A stretch of DNA of 55,611 nucleotides from a virus (Duplodnaviria; Heunggongvirae; Uroviricota; Caudoviricetes): IMG/VR virus record IMGVR_UViG_2778261256_000006, positions 1 to 55,611 of that record. One strand, 5' to 3'. Positions 18,346-51,943 of this stretch are shown piece after piece. A program made the position numbers and the translations under genes. Position 1 is the stretch's first letter. Each line of letters begins with the position of its first letter. A model generated the notes under the pieces. That model saw only the letters and a list, made by a program, of their open reading frames with translations. It was not told the DNA's origin and ran no database searches.

Positions 18346-18765
18346 CTACTTTGCGGCGTCTAACAATAAGCCGCAATTTTCGCTCATGTATGCCGCAGTT
18401 GCCGGATTGCCTCTGTCATTATTCGAATTGTTCATTTCAGGGTGAGCGTCCCAGGCCACTGATTCCTGAGATGATAGATAGACGGCAAAGTCGACGATTT
18501 CATCATCTCCGGTTTTAACGTTGCCAAGCAATTCATTTGCCTTTCTCCAGTGCTTCAGCGCGAGAATTCTGAACTGTTTTGCATTTTCAGCAGGCACTGC
18601 ACTGGATTTGTCTGTGTAGATATTCGATATGTCGGCATAAAGAGCGCATTTAACATAGCTGGTTGCCCTGCCGGTCTCTTTAAAACCTTGCTCTGTGTTG
18701 TTGGCGTAGACATTCACAGCAAAAGCGCTGGCAATTCCCAGCAATATAATTTTCTTCATCATCAT
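18346..18765 (-). CDS. secreted hypothetical protein (signal peptide)
   Basis: MMMKKIILLGIASAFAVNVYA signal peptide; 139 aa. Confidence 0.55.
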   Translation of the reverse strand: MMMKKIILLGIASAFAVNVYANNTEQGFKETGRATSYVKCALYADISNIYTDKSSAVPAENAKQFRILALKHWRKANELLGNVKTGDDEIVDFAVYLSSQESVAWDAHPEMNNSNNDRGNPATAAYMSENCGLLLDAAK

Positions 18766-18936
18766 TACTCAATAAGGAGGCGACAAATATCTTACGTGTA
18801 GTTGTCAGTTGAGTATTAAGTAAACTCAATAAACTTATAAGTATCTCCCTGTGCAGCCTGTGAATCCTTATTTATTACCTACTCAATTTTGAAATAATAA
18901 CACCAACAAAAAAACAATTTGTTTAATGGTGCAATC

Positions 18937-20622
18937 ATGAATACAGCCCTTTCCATCATTGACGCTATCACTCCAAACACTGATATCGACTACCGGCAGG
19001 AAATGAACGTTATCCACGAAATTGTGGCCGAGTGCGAGAAAGAGATCGCATTCATGCATCAGGTTCACGACTTCGTTTATGGCGACGAACGCCACAGCAT
19101 GATTAACCGTCTGCTGCGACTCAACCACCGGCCGGATGACGAGCGCACACGCTTTAACAGAGCCTGGTTGGACAAAGTCGACCTGGAATGGGTGAAACAG
19201 AACATCTGGGCTGAATACTGGAAGAAGGTCACGGATATGACCAACGTTCTGCTGATCATGCCAGCATCCCGCCGCGACGAGTGGCGTGAACAGTTTATCG
19301 AGGGCAAGCAGGAAACGATCAAGACTGACAGAACTGGCTATCAAATGAAGGTTAAAGAGTTCGTTGGTGTACCTGAGTTCAAAGCAGAAACGGTCATACC
19401 AACGATGCTTAATTTGCTGAATGACAGGCACAAATATCTCTCTGAGCGCGTGTATGGCTTGTTTAAGGCGTTGAGTCCTGCTCACAAGACCAATAAGACG
19501 AACGGCTTCAGCGAGCGTCTGATCATCGCCGACTGCATTTCCGATTTCTGGCGGGACAGCGTCAGCGTTAACTACCGGAAAGAGGATTACATAGACGACC
19601 TGCGCGTCATGTTGCATTTCTTTGCACACAAAGAATTTATCACCATCAACCGCACGGCCGAGATGCTGTCAGCTGCGTATCGAGCAAATGACTGCCAGAC
19701 CGGCGACTGGATGAATGTCGACGGAAACCTGATGCGTGTGAAGATGTTTAAGAACGGCAACGTTCACTTTGAAATACATCCTGACGTAGCCTGGAAGCTG
19801 AATGAGGTGCTGGCTTACAGTATGCCTGCAGCAATCCCGGCGCCATGCCGTACTGCACCCAAAACACGGGCACCAAAAGAGTTCGGGTTAATCCAGAAGA
19901 CGATCTCCGAGCCGGTTCGTACCGCGCTGCGCGACGGGCGATTCAGCAAAGATAAAGGCGTCTGGTACTTCTCTGATTCCAACCTCCAGAAGTCGCAGGT
20001 GGAAGAGCTTGAGCGCACACTGAACTTCATTGGCGGCGTGCAGGAGAAAAAGCACTGGCAGTTCCCGTATGAGATCGGCCATACGCTCAATACGATTGTG
20101 GCCACCGGCTTAATACCGGATACAAAATCACACCAGTTCTACCCTACCCCGCGTTTGATAGCGGAGTACGTTGCCAGAGCCATCGAGCTGAAGCAAGGTG
20201 AGAAGCTGCTGGAGCCTGAAGCCGGGCGCGGAGATCTGCTGGCCTGCATCGACGCCAATCCGGAAGACGTTACCTGCATAGAAGTCGCACCTCTCTTCGC
20301 TGATATCCTGCTTGGCAAGGGGTACACAAATACGGTCTGCTGCGACTTCATGAAGTGGTCTGAGGACAACGCAGGTTATCAGTTCGACAAAATCGTTATG
20401 AACCCGCCCTACTCTCTTGGCCGTCACAGAGAGCATACGCTGGCCGCGCTGGAGCATCTTAAAGTCGGCGGGCGACTGGTGGCTGTATTGCCTGGTGATG
20501 CGCCAGTTCTGAACTGGATGTCGCTGGATAATTACGTTTATGCCAAAGGGAAGTCGTTTACTGACGAGTTTGAAGACACCGGGATTACTGTCAGCGTATA
20601 CGTTTTTAAACGCGTTAAATGA
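18937..20622 (+). CDS. DNA N6-adenine methyltransferase (orphan) with large N-terminal domain of unknown function
   Basis: C-terminal SAM-binding motif I (LEPEAGRGDLL) and catalytic NPPY (VMNPPYS); about 380-aa N-terminal extension; no cognate endonuclease adjacent. Confidence 0.75.
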   Translation: MNTALSIIDAITPNTDIDYRQEMNVIHEIVAECEKEIAFMHQVHDFVYGDERHSMINRLLRLNHRPDDERTRFNRAWLDKVDLEWVKQNIWAEYWKKVTDMTNVLLIMPASRRDEWREQFIEGKQETIKTDRTGYQMKVKEFVGVPEFKAETVIPTMLNLLNDRHKYLSERVYGLFKALSPAHKTNKTNGFSERLIIADCISDFWRDSVSVNYRKEDYIDDLRVMLHFFAHKEFITINRTAEMLSAAYRANDCQTGDWMNVDGNLMRVKMFKNGNVHFEIHPDVAWKLNEVLAYSMPAAIPAPCRTAPKTRAPKEFGLIQKTISEPVRTALRDGRFSKDKGVWYFSDSNLQKSQVEELERTLNFIGGVQEKKHWQFPYEIGHTLNTIVATGLIPDTKSHQFYPTPRLIAEYVARAIELKQGEKLLEPEAGRGDLLACIDANPEDVTCIEVAPLFADILLGKGYTNTVCCDFMKWSEDNAGYQFDKIVMNPPYSLGRHREHTLAALEHLKVGGRLVAVLPGDAPVLNWMSLDNYVYAKGKSFTDEFEDTGITVSVYVFKRVK

Positions 20623-29386: not shown

Positions 29387-29722
29387 ATATGGGCGATTTC
29401 AAGAAACGCCTGAAGGAGAGAGCCGAGATGGTCAGAAAGCGAAACGCCTCTTCTGTCATAAGATACGCAAGGCAGTTTAGTCGCAACAACAAATCAGTTG
29501 AGGAAAAGATCCTTAGCGTAATCGGGCGATAATTATTAAGGCCACCAGCATTGGTGGTCTTAAATGACTTTTAATAACCGAAGGTTAGTTTAAAACCTGG
29601 CTATCAACTTCCAGAACCTTTCTTGTGTATTCAGCCTGTATTAACTTCTTTTATGCCTTATCTACACTGCGATAATTACACCAACAAGAAAACAATATGT
29701 TTACGCAGTGAGGATATGCTCA

Positions 29723-30003
29723 TGACTGATTTCACCATTACCCCTAAAGCACAAAATGTATTCCTTGAATCATGGCTGGACTTGCCGGAAACAGAACAGC
29801 AAGAAATGGATCATGTGGAATATGACGAGCAGGTAAGCACGCGATTCTTCCACTTTGAGGGCTGCGTTTACGACATTGCCGACTTCATGCGAGATGACCG
29901 CTTCCCTGAATGGCACGCAAGCTATCCACTAAACGCCTTCGCCATGCTGATGATCCGTGTGGATGATTCAGGGGATACCATCGACATCGGTCTGCTCCAC
30001 TAA
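29723..30003 (+). CDS. small acidic hypothetical protein
   Basis: 93 aa; GATAAT plus operator-like palindrome upstream; followed by a hairpin. Confidence 0.5.
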
Positions 30004-30207
30004 AGAGTAAGGCCACCAATGCTGGTGGCCTTAAATGACCATCCTGTTTCCCGCAGGCTAAAAACACCAACCTCTTACCTCTAGGCAACCGACAAACCCA
30101 CCTGTTCCCGTCCGGCTACCGCAACTTTCCACTTTGACGCCTTATTCGTACAACGATAATTAACACCAACAAGAAAACAATTTGTTATTTACGATAAGGA
30201 ATTAATC

Positions 30208-30690
30208 ATGAATTTTATCGCTACTGTAAACGCACCCGCACATGGCAATATCGCTGTAACGTTCTCTGACATTGAAAAACGAGTACTTGGTGCATGGCGC
30301 GACAATGAGACGGTAGAACTGTCAGCACAAGAAAAATGCATTATTGCACGCGACATCATTGGCAATCGTCGTTACTCGCGGGTATTTGAGAAAGCATATG
30401 TGGTAAATTCTGGATTCGGAACGTTCGTCTTTCCGGTGCGCTCCGGGCGATTCTGCCAGTCCAAGCTGATTGAGTTCGCTACGCAGATTTCTGTCTGGAT
30501 TAAAACTCAATCGTCGTTCAAATTTTCCGACGATGAAGCAGTATCGCAGGGGATGCGGATCGCCAACAATGCAATAAAATACAAAAACATTACGTATGCC
30601 GCTGGCGTTGACACATGGAAACTGTTTTGCGCTAACTTTATGCTGAATGTATACGCAAGCAACCGCATCCACATCCTTGATGGCGTGTAA
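30208..30690 (+). CDS. hypothetical protein
   Basis: 160 aa; GATAAT plus operator-like palindrome upstream; followed by a terminator. Confidence 0.5.
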   Translation: MNFIATVNAPAHGNIAVTFSDIEKRVLGAWRDNETVELSAQEKCIIARDIIGNRRYSRVFEKAYVVNSGFGTFVFPVRSGRFCQSKLIEFATQISVWIKTQSSFKFSDDEAVSQGMRIANNAIKYKNITYAAGVDTWKLFCANFMLNVYASNRIHILDGV

Positions 30691-30696
30691 CTGAGA

Positions 30697-30722
30697 AGAG
30701 GGCCAGAAACGGCCCTTTCTCT
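30697..30722 (+). terminator. rho-independent terminator
   Basis: AGAGGGCC-AGAAAC-GGCCCT followed by TTCT. Confidence 0.55.
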
Positions 30723-31313
30723 ATAGCCACCAGCTGCCGCAGGGAAATTTTCAGAAACGGCGAGGAACGCATTCATGAGCCGACGGGAAACGGCCAAGAT
30801 TTTTTCGGGAAACGGCGGGGGTCGCCTTTATGTAGAAAACTGAGCGGGAGAAACCCGGAATCGCGCCAGAAATTGCGTAGCGGCGCTGGGGTAGCGCTGG
30901 TGGGGTTTCAGCCCCTGGGCCATCCAGATAGCTTTCGCTATGTGATTATGTGAATCCGTGGGTAAATCACTGTAAGCGCGTACACGTTGCCCAACGTGGC
31001 GATCATATGCGAGCGGATACAAAACAACACAAAGAGCCGATCCGCGCCGACAAATAAACGCGGATCACATAGCAAGACTAAAAGCCAATGATTAACCATA
31101 CTCTATAGCGCAATATAACGCGTTTTAAGCGCGTTAATGTGTTAAGTAATGGGTATGTACTGACAAGGATATAAAAGCGCGTCTATGGCGTTATTTTGGT
31201 GCTTATTTTTATGTTGTTGGAGTGAGTTAAAGACAATAAAAAACGCGCCAATGATGGCGCGTTATGGTGGGAGTATTGGAAACGAAAAAAGCGCCCATAG
31301 TGGGCGCTCGATT

Positions 31314-31544
31314 TTATTTGTGTAAACTAATTTTGAATCCCATTTCTACAAACGCTTTTAACATTAAAAATATATCAGCGTCGTTCACGTCTGCTTTTTT
31401 TCGCTCCTGGTCGTTCAATAAGTCAATTTTGCGCGTTGTTTCATTTATAAACTCGACTGCGCGCCCAGCGATCCCAGCGATCCCAGCGATGCGATTAACA
31501 TAATATTCATTATGGACGTTAACGCCAGCGATAAGAACAAACAT
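31314..31544 (-). CDS. small hypothetical protein containing a 9-bp triple tandem repeat (IAGIAGIAG)
   Basis: 76-aa ORF in the AT-rich islet, bracketed by two copies of the hairpin GCGCCCATAGTGGGCGC (31288-31315, 31563-31585). Confidence 0.35.
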   Translation of the reverse strand: MFVLIAGVNVHNEYYVNRIAGIAGIAGRAVEFINETTRKIDLLNDQERKKADVNDADIFLMLKAFVEMGFKISLHK

Positions 31545-31594
31545 GATTAAGCTCCTTAAAACTAGCGCCCATAGTGGGCGCTATATCCATCTAA

Positions 31595-32245
31595 TTACGC
31601 TTTGAAAGCATCAGCCAGATAGTTATAAAAATCATTTTTAACGAAGCGATATTGCTGTGATCCGTTTTTCGCTGCACCCATTCCTTTGATTTTTTCGACC
31701 AGTCCCAGACGTTCGCAAAGATTGATAAGCTGGTTGGCTTGAGTGTATCCTGCGTCTAATTTTATTTCGTTGGCTTTTTTCGCTTCATTCATTAAATCGA
31801 AAACAGCGCCATTGGTGAACGTGTCGATCTCGTCGTTAATCATATCGATTAATGCGAATACACGAGATCCGGACATATCAGCGACGGAATAAACACACTT
31901 TCCAGCTTTAATAGATTTAACCAGATAAACCAGTTTTTCGAGTGAATAGCTATTGGTCATAGCTTCACGGAAAAACGCTTCAGGTGCTTGTTTGCTTGCT
32001 TTAATCGCGTAGTAAAAGACACCAGCTAATTTCTCATCATTAACAGCGTTTAAAACGTTGTTGGTGAAGTATGCTAGTTTGGTAGACGCTGCAAGCATGT
32101 TGGCTTTATCCGCTTTTGTGTGCGTACCATTCTGATAATGATTGTTATAAGTCTGAGTAGCGTTGTTGGCTGCAACTTGCAATTCATTAGCGATAACTAC
32201 AGCAGCGTCGATGATGGATTTTTTAGAAATGGTAACGTTAGACAT
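31595..32245 (-). CDS. hypothetical protein (AT-rich islet)
   Basis: 216-aa ORF with strongly AT-rich upstream region (32250-32560); no recognisable motif. Confidence 0.5.
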   Translation of the reverse strand: MSNVTISKKSIIDAAVVIANELQVAANNATQTYNNHYQNGTHTKADKANMLAASTKLAYFTNNVLNAVNDEKLAGVFYYAIKASKQAPEAFFREAMTNSYSLEKLVYLVKSIKAGKCVYSVADMSGSRVFALIDMINDEIDTFTNGAVFDLMNEAKKANEIKLDAGYTQANQLINLCERLGLVEKIKGMGAAKNGSQQYRFVKNDFYNYLADAFKA

Positions 32246-32566
32246 GATGTTAATCCTTATGTAATGTTGATAACTTAATTTGTTATTTATTTATCGTTAG
32301 CGCGTTCGCTTTCGATGTGATTAATTATCGACATACAGAAAATAAAATCAAGAGTTTTTTTGTTCGGGAATGAAAAATTTTATTAAATAAAAATCAAAGT
32401 CTTAGAAATAAAATGCATTTTCTCGAAGGTGTTGCCTAAATAAATTCTCTATTCAGCCAATCACCCTTATATATTTAAATTGGAATCGAGTTTGTGGGAA
32501 ATAAATATAACGGGAAGTGACGAATAAAATAATAACCGGACTTAGCCGGTTATTACCCTTATAGAT

Positions 32567-33094
32567 TTAAAACGGTAAAATTCGTTCGACCCAATCGAAC
32601 ATGGCGACTGTCTTCCTACCGTCCCCCATGTTGAGTGTGACCTGACAAGCGTCAACGCCTCTTGACACCCCTTCTATTTCACGACCGTCCGCCATGTAGA
32701 CCCTTATAGACTTCTGCATCTCATGAGCCTGGCGACAAATTTTGAAGAAATCACGGCGAGATGGCCGATTGTCCACATAGTCTGGGTGTACCGTTGTCCG
32801 ACCCGTGAAGTCGTGCGCAATGCCTTCTGTCACACCTGATTCAATCGTGCTGATTCGCTCAAGTGGGAGCCTTATACGATTTTCTTTGTCGAACGGGGCA
32901 GGGCAAAGGTCGACTTTGTTGCGAGACGACATGAGACCCTGAACGTACATGCAGAACACCTGACCATCTTCCATCGTGACCCTTACAGGAATGAGATACT
33001 TACGCCAGAACATCAGCGCCTTCTCCACGTTGGTGTAATCGCGCGGCCAGACTTCTGCAGGAATCCCGTAGGTGATGTCAGTAATATTCGTCAT
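32567..33094 (-). CDS. hypothetical protein with two similar internal segments
   Basis: Last gene of the helicase operon; start may be 33136 or 33094. Confidence 0.45.
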   Translation of the reverse strand: MTNITDITYGIPAEVWPRDYTNVEKALMFWRKYLIPVRVTMEDGQVFCMYVQGLMSSRNKVDLCPAPFDKENRIRLPLERISTIESGVTEGIAHDFTGRTTVHPDYVDNRPSRRDFFKICRQAHEMQKSIRVYMADGREIEGVSRGVDACQVTLNMGDGRKTVAMFDWVERILPF

Positions 33095-33098
33095 ATCG

Positions 33099-33521
33099 TC
33101 ACAGTGTCGTTGGTAAGATATCGATGTCACCAGCATTACTGGTGAACACCCGGAAGACTTTCGTCTCGCCAGCTTTGGTAATCGTCTCGCGTTCCTGACG
33201 AGCAGGATTCAGTGCGCACAGCCCAGCGTCTTCGAGTGAGGCGCCAACAATCCATTCTCCGGCATCCAGATGAAAAGTGACTTTTTCACCTGTTTCCAGT
33301 TTTGCAACGGTTTCGCCATTGATGAAGATCGATGCGTCGCAACCGGCGCCCACCATGCTTTTATCTCTCATAACCACCAGCGTCGATGCCGCCGGAGATT
33401 GGTATTTGAATATTCTGGTCTGCGGTGCTGGCTTTGCCTCAGAGACAGGAATAGGACGAGATTGACATGCAGTGATAAGTAACGCGGAGGCAGCAACCAG
33501 AGGAAGTAATACGTGTTTCAT
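33099..33521 (-). CDS. lipoprotein (signal peptide with lipobox)
   Basis: MKHVLLPLVAASALLITAC: lipobox LITAC. Confidence 0.55.
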   Translation of the reverse strand: MKHVLLPLVAASALLITACQSRPIPVSEAKPAPQTRIFKYQSPAASTLVVMRDKSMVGAGCDASIFINGETVAKLETGEKVTFHLDAGEWIVGASLEDAGLCALNPARQERETITKAGETKVFRVFTSNAGDIDILPTTL

Positions 33522-50167: not shown

Positions 50168-50935
50168 TTATGCCGCGCTAACACTATGTTCATTCCTAAC
50201 CACCCCAACCTTCACAAAAGGGCTGCCGTAGCTTGGTGGCTTCTTGATTAATTTGCCTACATACAGTTTTCTAATATGCTCATCGGCTATTCTGCCAACA
50301 AATTCATAACGTTTTGTGTCGGGGCCAAGAGCTATATCCCTTGTAAAGTACTGCTGAGAACCGGCTTTGACCCAGCATTCAATCTGATAAACTTCCATTA
50401 TCAGGCCCCCATATGTAGCGTAGGCATATTTGAGATTCTCGTCTCTTGGAACCTTTGCCCATACGCCACGCGTAGCTTCATATAATGCCAGAGCGGACAT
50501 TCCTGACTTGTAGGTGCTGTTTAGCAGGAAGGCAAGACCGGCGTGCTCAGGAGCAATTTCAGTTTCCTCTTGCAGCACTAAGTGATGGTAGGCGTCCAGT
50601 GATATTCTGCCCATCATGGAACCACTTCCTCGTACCTTATTCGTAAGCTCTCCGACCCCCATAAGGTCGATGCATGTCGCCTCAACAAGTTTGGCTGTGG
50701 TTTCATCCATACCATGACGAAGAATATCTATGCCTAATTTTTTATTAGCCAAAAGTTCTTTGATCCGCATGGATTTGGGAGAGTCATCGGGATACTTGAT
50801 GTGATCGAGACAACGAGTCGATTTGCCTTTTCCTATGTAAAACGGTCTTTTCATCTTGTCTTCTGTATCATAGAGACAGTAAACATAGTATTTAGCCTTA
50901 TCCAATGATCTCGCGTATACCGATAAATCGTCCAT
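50168..50935 (-). CDS. GIY-YIG nuclease-domain protein (homing-endonuclease-like)
   Basis: N-terminal GIY-YIG-like motif (YYVYCLYD..PFYIGKGKSTRCLDH); flanked by AT-rich sequence. Confidence 0.6.
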   Translation of the reverse strand: MDDLSVYARSLDKAKYYVYCLYDTEDKMKRPFYIGKGKSTRCLDHIKYPDDSPKSMRIKELLANKKLGIDILRHGMDETTAKLVEATCIDLMGVGELTNKVRGSGSMMGRISLDAYHHLVLQEETEIAPEHAGLAFLLNSTYKSGMSALALYEATRGVWAKVPRDENLKYAYATYGGLIMEVYQIECWVKAGSQQYFTRDIALGPDTKRYEFVGRIADEHIRKLYVGKLIKKPPSYGSPFVKVGVVRNEHSVSAA

Positions 50936-51045
50936 TATTGCATCTCTTAGCTACTGACTAATGCGTTCTATTTTACACATAAGTTTTTAATCAATTTTAC
51001 AGGCTCAAAGTGTAGAGCTTCTGGGTGTCTAAGACGACAAGTTAT

Positions 51046-51100
51046 GCCTGTTTCTGTATATAAATAATAAGTAACTTATTAAATATATACGGAAGCAGGT
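51046..51100. repeat. palindromic element copy B, followed by T-tract
   Basis: GCCTGTTTCTGTATATA..TATATACGGAAGCAGGTC followed by TTTTAAAAG; near-identical right arm to 38929-38989. Confidence 0.6.
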
Positions 51101-51217
51101 CTTTTAAAAGACACCCACCAGAACAACTCCCTTCCGTTTCCACTTCCCAAAAATATCTCCAGTCGCTATGATTCGTTCACTTAGATAAGTAAGTACATAC
51201 CTATTAAAGGGAATCAT

Positions 51218-51943
51218 GTGAGCCAGATCTTCTTCAACACTATCGACAATGACCAGTACGATTTCATGACAGAGTGGAACACCGCAGTCATGGATAAGTG
51301 GGTAGCGGAGAACATTGGCCTGTCACGTTGCAAGGACGAGGCGGAACTGTTCGAAACCAAATGGTTTGACTATCGCGATATGCACCCGCTCATGGCCACA
51401 TGCCTTTTCACTGAGGCATACAAGCGCCAGTACTCATACATCATGCTGTCGCATGGTCGTGAACACTATGAGACGGCTCCATTCACAACCGGTCTGAAGC
51501 GTGTGCCATATCAGGAGTTGTCGACTGCCAATAAAACGTCTCTATGGAAAGCACGCCAGTTTGCTGACCGCTATTGCTGCTCATACGACTACTTTATCTC
51601 CACCGTTCTTTCCGCAGCTGCACGACGGCTGTGGGACAAATTACCGCGCCCCCAGCATCTCTGGCAGCCCGAGTTGATCGAGATATTCGAAGAGAAGTTA
51701 GCCAAACGCGCTGTAACCCGTCTGGATGACTCTCTGGTGAGTTTTAAGCATCTTGGAGACATGCAGCGTGACCCGATTCAGGAACGCTATTTTGAGTGGA
51801 TTCTGGAGCGTCTGCGTGGCATTACCCGAGATAAACGCATCCGTATCATCTTCTCCGCTGTCTGGTTGATGGAAATCGTGCCTGAGCGTGTGATTTACGC
51901 GCACTTCCCGGAAGAACTGGAAGAAGCACGGCGATTCTGTTGA
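51218..51943 (+). CDS. hypothetical protein
   Basis: 241-aa ORF preceded by the GTAAGTAC palindrome. Confidence 0.5.
   Translation: MSQIFFNTIDNDQYDFMTEWNTAVMDKWVAENIGLSRCKDEAELFETKWFDYRDMHPLMATCLFTEAYKRQYSYIMLSHGREHYETAPFTTGLKRVPYQELSTANKTSLWKARQFADRYCCSYDYFISTVLSAAARRLWDKLPRPQHLWQPELIEIFEEKLAKRAVTRLDDSLVSFKHLGDMQRDPIQERYFEWILERLRGITRDKRIRIIFSAVWLMEIVPERVIYAHFPEELEEARRFC

Follow-up and report, generated by a model that had tools for sequence, protein, structure and literature searches.

An AT-rich islet in an SSU5-type phage-plasmid is probably an ancestral core operon with a variable small-ORF slot

Does a compact AT-rich islet with its own promoter and terminators mark recently acquired cargo, or can it belong to the core of the element that carries it? 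The question is raised by a stretch of 55,611 nucleotides from a tailed virus (Caudoviricetes; IMG/VR record IMGVR_UViG_2778261256_000006, positions 1 to 55,611; the whole stretch is called the window here). Within it, a sequence-only reading had singled out an islet with two minus-strand genes at 31000-32566 and proposed a recently acquired module, the kind of place where accessory defence or toxin genes reside. Our comparisons favor another account, which we regard as reasonably probable, in which the islet is an ancestral core operon, silent in lysogeny and used in the lytic phase, that encodes a probable DNA-binding regulator followed by a small array of accessory cassettes.

The replicon is an SSU5-type (SSU5-like) phage-plasmid. 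The region was 99.7% identical to E. coli plasmids of ~70-113 kb and matched 785 PLSDB plasmids at the DNA level, and its identity to the phages SSU5 and Cyrano was 84-87%, with the same gene order. A sliding-window scan of guanine-plus-cytosine (GC) content bore out the AT-richness of the islet: positions 31100-32560 had a GC of 37.7% versus 48.6% for the whole window (55.6 kb) and formed its lowest-GC stretch, only 0.17% of sliding 1461-bp windows being as low (mean 48.7%, standard deviation 3.4; minimum at 31111). In the 321 bp upstream of the larger gene (32246-32566), GC fell to 29.0%. Elsewhere in the window, 300-bp GC dropped below 36% only at 18681-19020 and 50701-51250. The two open reading frames (ORFs) were present as described:

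31595..32245, minus strand: 216-aa gene (SSU5_120 / CYRAN_113 / phrog_1513), an ORF with a match to phrog_1513 at E 1e-143
31314..31544, minus strand: small-ORF cassette type A (76 aa, phrog_1585), from the ORF and its PHROG assignment

The distribution of the 216-aa gene contradicts recent acquisition of the islet as a whole. A tblastn search of PLSDB disclosed a homologue in 815 plasmids, and the counts for the homologue and for the flanking helicase were, respectively, 346 and 346 in Klebsiella, 62 and 62 in Yersinia, 49 and 49 in Salmonella, 25 and 25 in Citrobacter, 91 and 92 in Enterobacter, and 217 and 229 in Escherichia. The same search detected no 216-aa homologue in distant relatives from Acinetobacter and Aeromonas in which the helicase is present. 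Together with its control region, the gene was syntenic in essentially all enterobacterial and Yersinia SSU5-type phage-plasmids (~98% or more of related plasmids) and also in distant lineages. Conservation in all relatives together with an annotated housekeeping function had been named beforehand as the outcome that would speak against acquisition; the conservation was found, and no housekeeping function is annotated.

Gene order was identical in SSU5, Cyrano, Y. pestis pMT1, pKP301b, and the Moellerella and Pectobacterium elements. In SSU5, Cyrano, and pMT1, the orthologues of the 216-aa protein were 85-96% identical to it, and their genes did not differ in position, promoter region, or hairpins. 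Relatives at ~32% identity, reached by tblastn on PLSDB, lie on Xenorhabdus, Moellerella, Pectobacterium, and Providencia elements of ~103-108 kb. The Moellerella neighborhood comprises an ABC ATPase, two ParB-like genes, the helicase, an FljA-like gene, and the 216-aa homologue; that of Pectobacterium is alike for the genes shown, and the Providencia record is unannotated, which limits the comparison of gene order there. In protein searches the family was almost confined to contigs of ~100-112 kb, and an exhaustive hidden Markov model search of 1.84 billion representatives returned just 26 clusters; the divergent homologues P0186, P0188, and P0202 had no match in IMG/VR.

Composition and selection tell the same story. 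The GC of the 216-aa gene was 5-10 points below that of its locus in eight of eight lineages, and its ratio of nonsynonymous to synonymous substitution rates (dN/dS) was 0.01-0.15. Because each lineage shows the low GC and dN/dS is low as well, the composition is old and maintained, and not a mark of recent transfer. The gene is present, syntenic, and under purifying selection, as expected of the core genome of SSU5-type phage-plasmids, and by sequence comparison it is ancestral and core to these elements, as are the AT-rich control region and the low GC. A literature search by accession returned no mention of SSU5_120/119, CYRAN_113/112, or their pMT1 counterparts.

The timing of expression comes from one relative, Cyrano, for which RNA-seq in E. 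coli LF82 is available as log2(5+FPKM), FPKM being fragments per kilobase per million and 2.32 corresponding to zero (PMC9928086, S1 Table). In overnight lysogens in lysogeny broth, CYRAN_113 (the 216-aa gene) and CYRAN_112 (the small ORF) stood at 2.32-2.78, under the background of the element, and they were still low in two other culture conditions and after 1 h in macrophages (PMC9928086). At 6 h in macrophages they reached ~5.6 and ~4.6, respectively, similar to the terminase, capsid, and other virion genes (PMC9928086). Neither belongs to the 13 morons of Cyrano; morons and toxin-antitoxin genes run 6- to 700-fold over background, and KacT, RelE, and HicAB are expressed in the lysogen (PMC9928086). 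The FljA-like gene upstream of CYRAN_113 is moderately expressed throughout (PMC9928086). Since this gene is on with CYRAN_113 at the floor, the 32530-32555 terminator is functional and the promoter of the operon itself is inactive in the plasmid state. The small ORF runs at about half the level of the 216-aa gene, as would fit a shared transcript that is partly attenuated at the first hairpin.

For the control region, we aligned the upstream DNA of eight elements, including those of Moellerella, Pectobacterium, and Providencia, and counted the recurrence of each feature in 58 distinct IMG/VR upstream sequences. The features are given in the direction of transcription:

32530..32555, minus strand: terminator-like hairpin AATAACCGG-N6-CCGGTTATT with a U-rich tail, an inverted repeat (fold -15.3 kcal/mol, z -3.7)
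32463..32476, minus strand: block M1 (ATATATAAGG core, ~-150), its 10-mer invariant in eight of eight elements and found in 56 of 58 IMG/VR upstream sequences
32423..32436, minus strand: block M2 GGCAACACCTTCGA (~-113), from the eight-element alignment, unique in the window at <=1 mismatch, in 47 of 58 sequences
32396..32408, minus strand: block M3 TTTCTAAGACTTT (~-85), TTTCTA[AG]GACTTT invariant in eight of eight elements, unique in the window, in 49 of 58 sequences
32324..32351, minus strand: sigma-70-type promoter with -35 TTGATT, a 16-nt spacer, -10 GATAAT, and an A-tract ahead, from promoter scan and alignment
32293..32316, minus strand: leader start AUCGAAAGCGAACGCGCUAACGAU with a predicted 5'-terminal stem-loop, from alignment and RNAalifold

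The hairpin at 32530-32555 ends the FljA-like gene, forms the 5' boundary of the operon, and was kept in 49 of the 58 sequences. Further copies of M1 lie over the FljA-like stop codon (32555-32568) and within the FljA-like ORF (32700-32713), and ACCCTTATAKAYTT has three exact copies in the window versus 0.69 expected. The consensus of M2 across the eight elements is AACACCT[TA]C at ~-113. All eight elements keep the TTGA of the -35, the 16-nt spacer, a -10-like hexamer, and the A-tract upstream of the -35, and in all of them the near-invariant ATCGAAAGC..GC.AACGA begins exactly 8 nt past the -10; we infer a transcription start at ~32316. The predicted leader is ~72 nt long, and its remainder bears an AAGGA Shine-Dalgarno sequence. 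Its stem-loop (AUCG/CGAU and AGC/GCU) comprises 7 pairs in RNAalifold, with one compensatory change, A-U to G-C, in Cyrano, and a modest single-sequence fold (-7.7 kcal/mol, z -2.2). A 5'-terminal stem-loop is a recognized means of stabilizing an mRNA.

Three other assignments for parts of this region were examined and rejected. For a sigma-28 promoter, GTCGATAA resembles the FliA -10, but its -35 and CGATAA are unconserved in Moellerella, Pectobacterium, and Providencia, where the sigma-70 geometry is conserved. An integration host factor site, AATCAAAGTCTTA (32391-32403, overlapping M3), has an ATCAA half that is unconserved outside the SSU5 subgroup, and a near-match to a DnaA box in the leader, TTATCAACA, is likewise unconserved. 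Against Rfam (E up to 1), positions 29500-33500 yielded nothing beyond chance matches below threshold. We also observed a cluster of TATAAGG[GC]T motifs in the same orientation on the minus strand at 32463-32987 (exact at 32471, 32563, and 32708; near at 32876 and 32987) that starts inside the FljA-like ORF, passes the stop codon of this ORF, and extends into the 216-aa promoter region, with no other exact copy in the window. Two copies also lie upstream of the 216-aa homologue in Moellerella, Pectobacterium, and Providencia.

Downstream of the 216-aa gene, the operon is punctuated by stem-loops:

31564..31582, minus strand: hairpin copy 1 AGCGCCCACUAUGGGCGCU (mRNA), intercistronic, with a weak U-run AGUUUUAAGG, from inverted repeat and fold
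31284..31308, minus strand: hairpin copy 2 with U6, an intrinsic terminator closing the operon, from the terminator scan (9 pairs + TTTTTT)
31236..31263, minus strand: second, back-up intrinsic terminator AACGCGCCA-N4-UGGCGCGUU with U6, from the terminator scan (fold -15.7 kcal/mol, z -5.7)

The window contains exactly two copies of GCGCCCATAGTGGGCGC, at 31291-31307 and 31565-31581, and an identical 19-mer, AGCGCCCATAGTGGGCGCT, spans 31290-31308 and 31564-31582, its only two copies in the 55.6 kb. Both copies lie within the ranges where the sequence-only reading had placed its identical hairpins, and the hairpins are real; they flank the 76-aa ORF only, and do not bracket both genes as it had supposed. 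Fold energies were -18.1 kcal/mol (z -3.4) for copy 1 and -15.5 kcal/mol (z -4.4) for copy 2. A GC-rich stem-loop followed by a U-run, as in intrinsic terminators, was found at copy 2 (31308-31290 + T6) and at 31263-31242 + T6; the stem of the latter is constant among relatives and its loop varies. Copy 1, which directly precedes the AAGGAG Shine-Dalgarno sequence of the small ORF, was not called by the terminator scan, its tail AGUUUUAAGG falling short of an intrinsic-terminator U-run.

Both hairpin copies were identical in SSU5, Cyrano, pMT1, and pKP301b, and in two of these elements the intervening DNA was unrelated. In the distant Moellerella element the gene is followed by one terminator, of a different kind, and by no annotated small ORF. 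The hairpin loop is usually CUA and sometimes the inverse UAG; in the IMG/VR loci L018, L021, L023, L026, L030, L040, L054, L067, L068, L072, L089, and L093 the two copies share the same palindromic stem, with loops inverted relative to each other (CTA versus TAG). As the inverted loops differ at three of three bases, inversion or template switching at the palindrome is an easier explanation than point mutation. The same 17-nt hairpin with a T-run also occurs in an unrelated 32-kb viral contig (L016 12916-12932), apparently as a terminator after a small gene near baseplate-like genes, and so the sequence is not exclusive to SSU5-type elements.

It is the ~270-bp slot bounded by the hairpins, and not the rest of the islet, that fits the description of accessory cargo. 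Type A, the ORF found here, was present in 414 plasmids. The slot of SSU5 (SSU5_119) and of pKP301b is filled by type B, a basic 67-aa ORF (phrog_6145) with no similarity to type A that was present in 517 plasmids; as the two counts together exceed the 815 carriers of the 216-aa gene, some plasmids hold both types. Plasmid pWP4-S18-ESBL-07_2 (L010) carries the gene, a hairpin, B, A, and a hairpin, and pNT1F34-108k (L011) carries the gene, a hairpin, A', a hairpin, A, and a hairpin, its three hairpins being identical. Every cassette starts with the Shine-Dalgarno junction TAAGGAGCTTAATCATG. Both GenBank and PHROGs label type B (e.g., L001 6428-6631) "MIT family metal ion transporter CorA", PHROGs in its category moron / auxiliary metabolic gene; the ORF is short, basic, and soluble-looking, with no Pfam support, and the label is almost certainly an error passed on between annotations.

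Exact matches to the hairpin in IMG/VR lay on 93 stretches of DNA, and architectures were read from the 80 listed (L015-L094). The 216-aa gene was present in 76 of these 80 loci, and three of the other four have the hairpin at the very end of the retrieved DNA. The arrangements downstream of the gene numbered more than 30, with zero to two small ORFs and one to three hairpin copies, among them hairpin-A-hairpin, hairpin-B-hairpin, A' + A, B + A, B-hairpin-A, and a lone terminator. In some loci two or three hairpins follow one another at a distance of 44-47 bp without an intervening ORF, a pattern compatible with excision footprints. Homologues of type A at ~35-43% identity also occur in IncX4 and IncX4-cointegrate conjugative plasmids (L012 3001-3225; L013 2902-3144), in a run of small hypothetical ORFs with a replication gene on one side and a hicAB toxin-antitoxin pair on the other.

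The 76-aa ORF itself is under relaxed constraint (dN/dS 0.2-0.4), and its AlphaFold model was poor, with a predicted local distance difference test score (pLDDT) of 43. It does contain a perfect threefold 9-bp repeat, as had been noticed, but a few bases away from the reported 31468-31494: Tandem Repeats Finder placed it at 31464-31490 (period 9, 3.0 copies, 100% match; unit CCCAGCGAT, encoding (IAG)n), and the register first proposed, CAGCGATCC, has two exact copies only (31466-31483). Type-A homologues of 70, 73, 76, and 79 aa differ only in the number of IAG units, from one to four, an in-frame variation in copy number.

The simplest reading of these patterns is that the hairpin was originally the operon terminator and that small ORFs have been repeatedly inserted, duplicated, exchanged, and lost at the hairpin/Shine-Dalgarno junctions. 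A comparable arrangement is known from T4-type phages, where the small ORFs of hyperplastic regions are flanked and shuffled by promoter-early stem-loop (PeSL) cassettes (PMC2839356, PMC4122927). As in PeSL, a repeated stem-loop motif flanks variable small ORFs of unknown function (in the 80 IMG/VR loci and in PLSDB plasmids), and comparative patterns point to insertion, deletion, duplication, and replacement at the repeats. In contrast, the PeSL repeat holds an early promoter, whereas the promoter scan found no promoter-like site in the hairpin and TAAGGAGCTTAATCATG junction; here the array is also tiny (zero to two ORFs), confined to one locus downstream of a core gene, and carried by a temperate phage-plasmid, with recombination proposed from comparative patterns. 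The small ORFs likewise resemble phage morons in being variable extras between a core gene and its terminator. Morons are usually defined by their own promoter and by prophage expression, and the small ORF has neither (no promoter in the scan; silent in the Cyrano lysogen).

What the 216-aa gene encodes was addressed by sequence and by structure. The sequence-only reading had found no recognizable motif in either protein, and this stood for sequence: neither protein had a match in Pfam, NCBIfam, PADLOC, or PDB sequences, the 216-aa protein remaining without one when searched as a profile, and Pfam searches with 13 family members gave scattered weak single-member matches only (FtsK_gamma, linker histone, DUF2250, coiled-coil families). 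Both proteins do, nevertheless, belong to PHROG families of unknown function, phrog_1513 and phrog_1585. AlphaFold with a 23-sequence alignment gave a model of the 216-aa protein with a pLDDT of 86 and a predicted template modeling score of 0.77. It comprises an N-terminal bundle of five helices (residues 8-114, a long hairpin first) and a predicted C-terminal winged helix (~124-213) made up of helix 129-137, strand 142-144, helices 145-158 and 168-179, strands 183-185 and 198-201, and helix 205-213. Foldseek searches of BFVD and PDB returned no fold match for the whole protein. At the domain level (~90 columns, E >0.03), the matches were winged helices of MukF, TubR, RTP, ORC/Cdc6, and LmrR. 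The structure-based homology search that had been suggested thus yielded domain-level matches and no family for the 216-aa protein, and the model of the 76-aa protein was too poor for it.

Compared with winged-helix proteins such as ArsR/SmtB, MarR, PadR/LmrR, TubR, and RTP, the modeled C-terminal 90 residues would share the winged helix-turn-helix topology (H1-S1-H2-H3-S2-wing-S3; ~80-90 residues superimposed at 2.5-4 A), and polar residues at the start of the predicted recognition helix are conserved. The 216-aa protein differs in lying outside any sequence family, in having the domain C-terminal and fused to a helical bundle of ~110 residues, in the acidity of the domain, and in a long loop between helices 2 and 3 (at least 9 residues). 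Conservation in the family peaks in the predicted recognition helix and its approach, where D164, T168, Q169, Q172, and G181 are kept to 25% identity, and such conservation points to a conserved ligand, most simply a DNA site.

Taken together, the operon would read, on the minus strand, from the FljA-like terminator through a ~240-bp AT-rich control region with three blocks, a sigma-70 promoter, and a stem-loop leader into the 216-aa gene, followed by the small-ORF array (here one type A), the hairpin with U6, and the second terminator. The promoter is probably repressed, or dependent on activation, in the plasmid state and would fire in lytic or early development. The 216-aa protein may act as a sequence-specific DNA-binding regulator or architectural protein through its predicted winged helix, for which T168, Q169, and Q172 of the recognition helix, invariant or nearly so to 25% identity, offer the one indirect support. 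Its N-terminal bundle could serve oligomerization, and the co-conserved upstream blocks are candidate targets. Hairpin 1 would be an intercistronic stabilizer or attenuator and not a full terminator, with the small ORF co-transcribed at a lower level, and the hairpin and Shine-Dalgarno junctions are putative recombination substrates for gain, loss, duplication, and swapping of small ORFs.

Several points weigh against this account. The winged-helix half is acidic (pI ~5.0) and its recognition helix has a single basic residue, so that the domain may be a protein-binding winged helix; the proposed DNA binding derives from the modeled fold and has no family assignment behind it. The expression data are from a relative ~85% identical in DNA, not from this element or from a time course of induction. 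Both the start site and the structure of the leader are predicted, the helix depending on one covarying pair, and recombination at the junctions is proposed from comparative patterns.

Of the competing explanations, the one that began this analysis, a recently acquired cargo island with an accessory defence or toxin pair, appears to us highly improbable. It is true that GC in the window is lowest in the islet, that the islet carries a promoter and terminators of its own, that neither protein has an assigned function, and that the small-ORF slot is truly variable, with type A common to IncX4 plasmids. Set against this are the synteny of the 216-aa gene and control region, already described, and a low GC that is conserved in every lineage; low GC and self-contained signals did not mean recent acquisition here. 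The suggestion of defence or toxin content fared no better: PADLOC matched 0 families at E up to 0.1 with both proteins and four neighbors, both genes are silent in the Cyrano lysogen, in which that element's prophage defence genes and toxin-antitoxin pairs show good expression, and the small partner is swapped for an unrelated ORF or absent, unlike a two-gene system. A type II toxin-antitoxin pair in particular was rejected, with no Pfam or NCBIfam match, a partner that is replaced, doubled, or absent, and silence in the lysogen. Scarcely more credible is a kleisin-like or SMC-interacting (structural maintenance of chromosomes) role, in which the 216-aa protein would be a partner or mimic set against MukBEF or Wadjet-type complexes and not a reader of DNA sequence. 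Its sole link is the winged-helix similarity, at E 0.03-0.06, and TubR, RTP, and LmrR match the same domain about equally; an hhalign comparison of the family profile with E. coli MukF was negative (probability 0.1%), there is no adjacent SMC gene, and a maintenance role fits poorly with silence in the plasmid state.

We also consider it improbable that the AT-rich region is a secondary (lytic) replication origin with the 216-aa protein as its initiator or origin-binding protein. The ~320 bp at 29% GC with conserved blocks directly upstream of a winged-helix gene would suit an origin, as would Foldseek matches that include ORC/Cdc6 winged helices, replication terminator protein, and phage "replication protein" models, in a neighborhood with a UvsW-like helicase and ParB-like nucleases. 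However, no iteron array is present, the sole repeat being the irregularly spaced TATAAGG motif; the conserved blocks fit promoter geometry (-35, 16-nt spacer, -10, leader 8 nt past the -10) in all lineages; and the protein has no Rep-family match and an N-terminal bundle unlike Rep proteins with two winged helices. Control of the operon after transcription, with the leader as the target of the adjacent FljA-like protein, is given a similarly small chance. Salmonella FljA acts on the fliC 5' untranslated region. The FljA-like gene (32567-33136, minus strand; full-length Flag1_repress, PF03614, E 1e-94) is the conserved upstream neighbor in all lineages, and the leader hardly varies over its first 24 nt. 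The Moellerella homologue (L005 6039-6566) has a weak, sub-threshold Hfq/Sm-like match (E 4e-4), which hints that the FljA-like family is RNA-binding. By eye, however, the leader has no convincing similarity to that of E. coli fliC, adjacency weighs little because these elements keep their gene order throughout, and transcript levels at the floor in lysogens point to transcriptional silence.

The reading we prefer, an ancestral core operon with a probable regulator and a cassette array, can be carried further, although the extended form is rather doubtful: the hairpin/Shine-Dalgarno junction would be a dedicated PeSL-like module that shuffles host-takeover or anti-defence ORFs, some of them shared with IncX4 plasmids, behind a lysogeny-silent promoter, and the winged-helix product would be a master early/lytic regulator that binds the upstream blocks. 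If true, this would expose the developmental switch in a family of phage-plasmids that is widespread in clinical settings. Clinical Klebsiella, E. coli, Enterobacter, and Salmonella commonly harbor SSU5-type phage-plasmids, a group that takes in most of Y. pestis pMT1 and whose members can carry resistance genes; the lysis-lysogeny and early gene control of these elements is essentially undescribed. A near-universal, strongly constrained, lysogeny-silent gene, with a promoter architecture conserved down to ~32% protein identity, is a good candidate part of that control. The hairpin-delimited slot, in turn, offers a small, tractable example of the exchange of short accessory genes among these elements and with conjugative plasmids.

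Two minor observations concern the edges of the operon. At its 5' side, an extra small ORF of 83-99 aa lies between the FljA-like gene and the terminator/TATAAGG element in two relatives (L004 5018-5317; L010 2952-3203), and by sequence comparison this is a second small variable spot in some relatives. Downstream of the operon, in the ~550-bp non-coding stretch 30691-31240, three direct repeats GAAACGGC(G/C) / GGGAAACGGC occur at 30750-30830, and a related repeat, GTTTCCCGAAAC, is found at the equivalent place in the Moellerella element (L005 8240-8320); the repeats of the window look like a protein-binding array, possibly iteron- or centromere-like.

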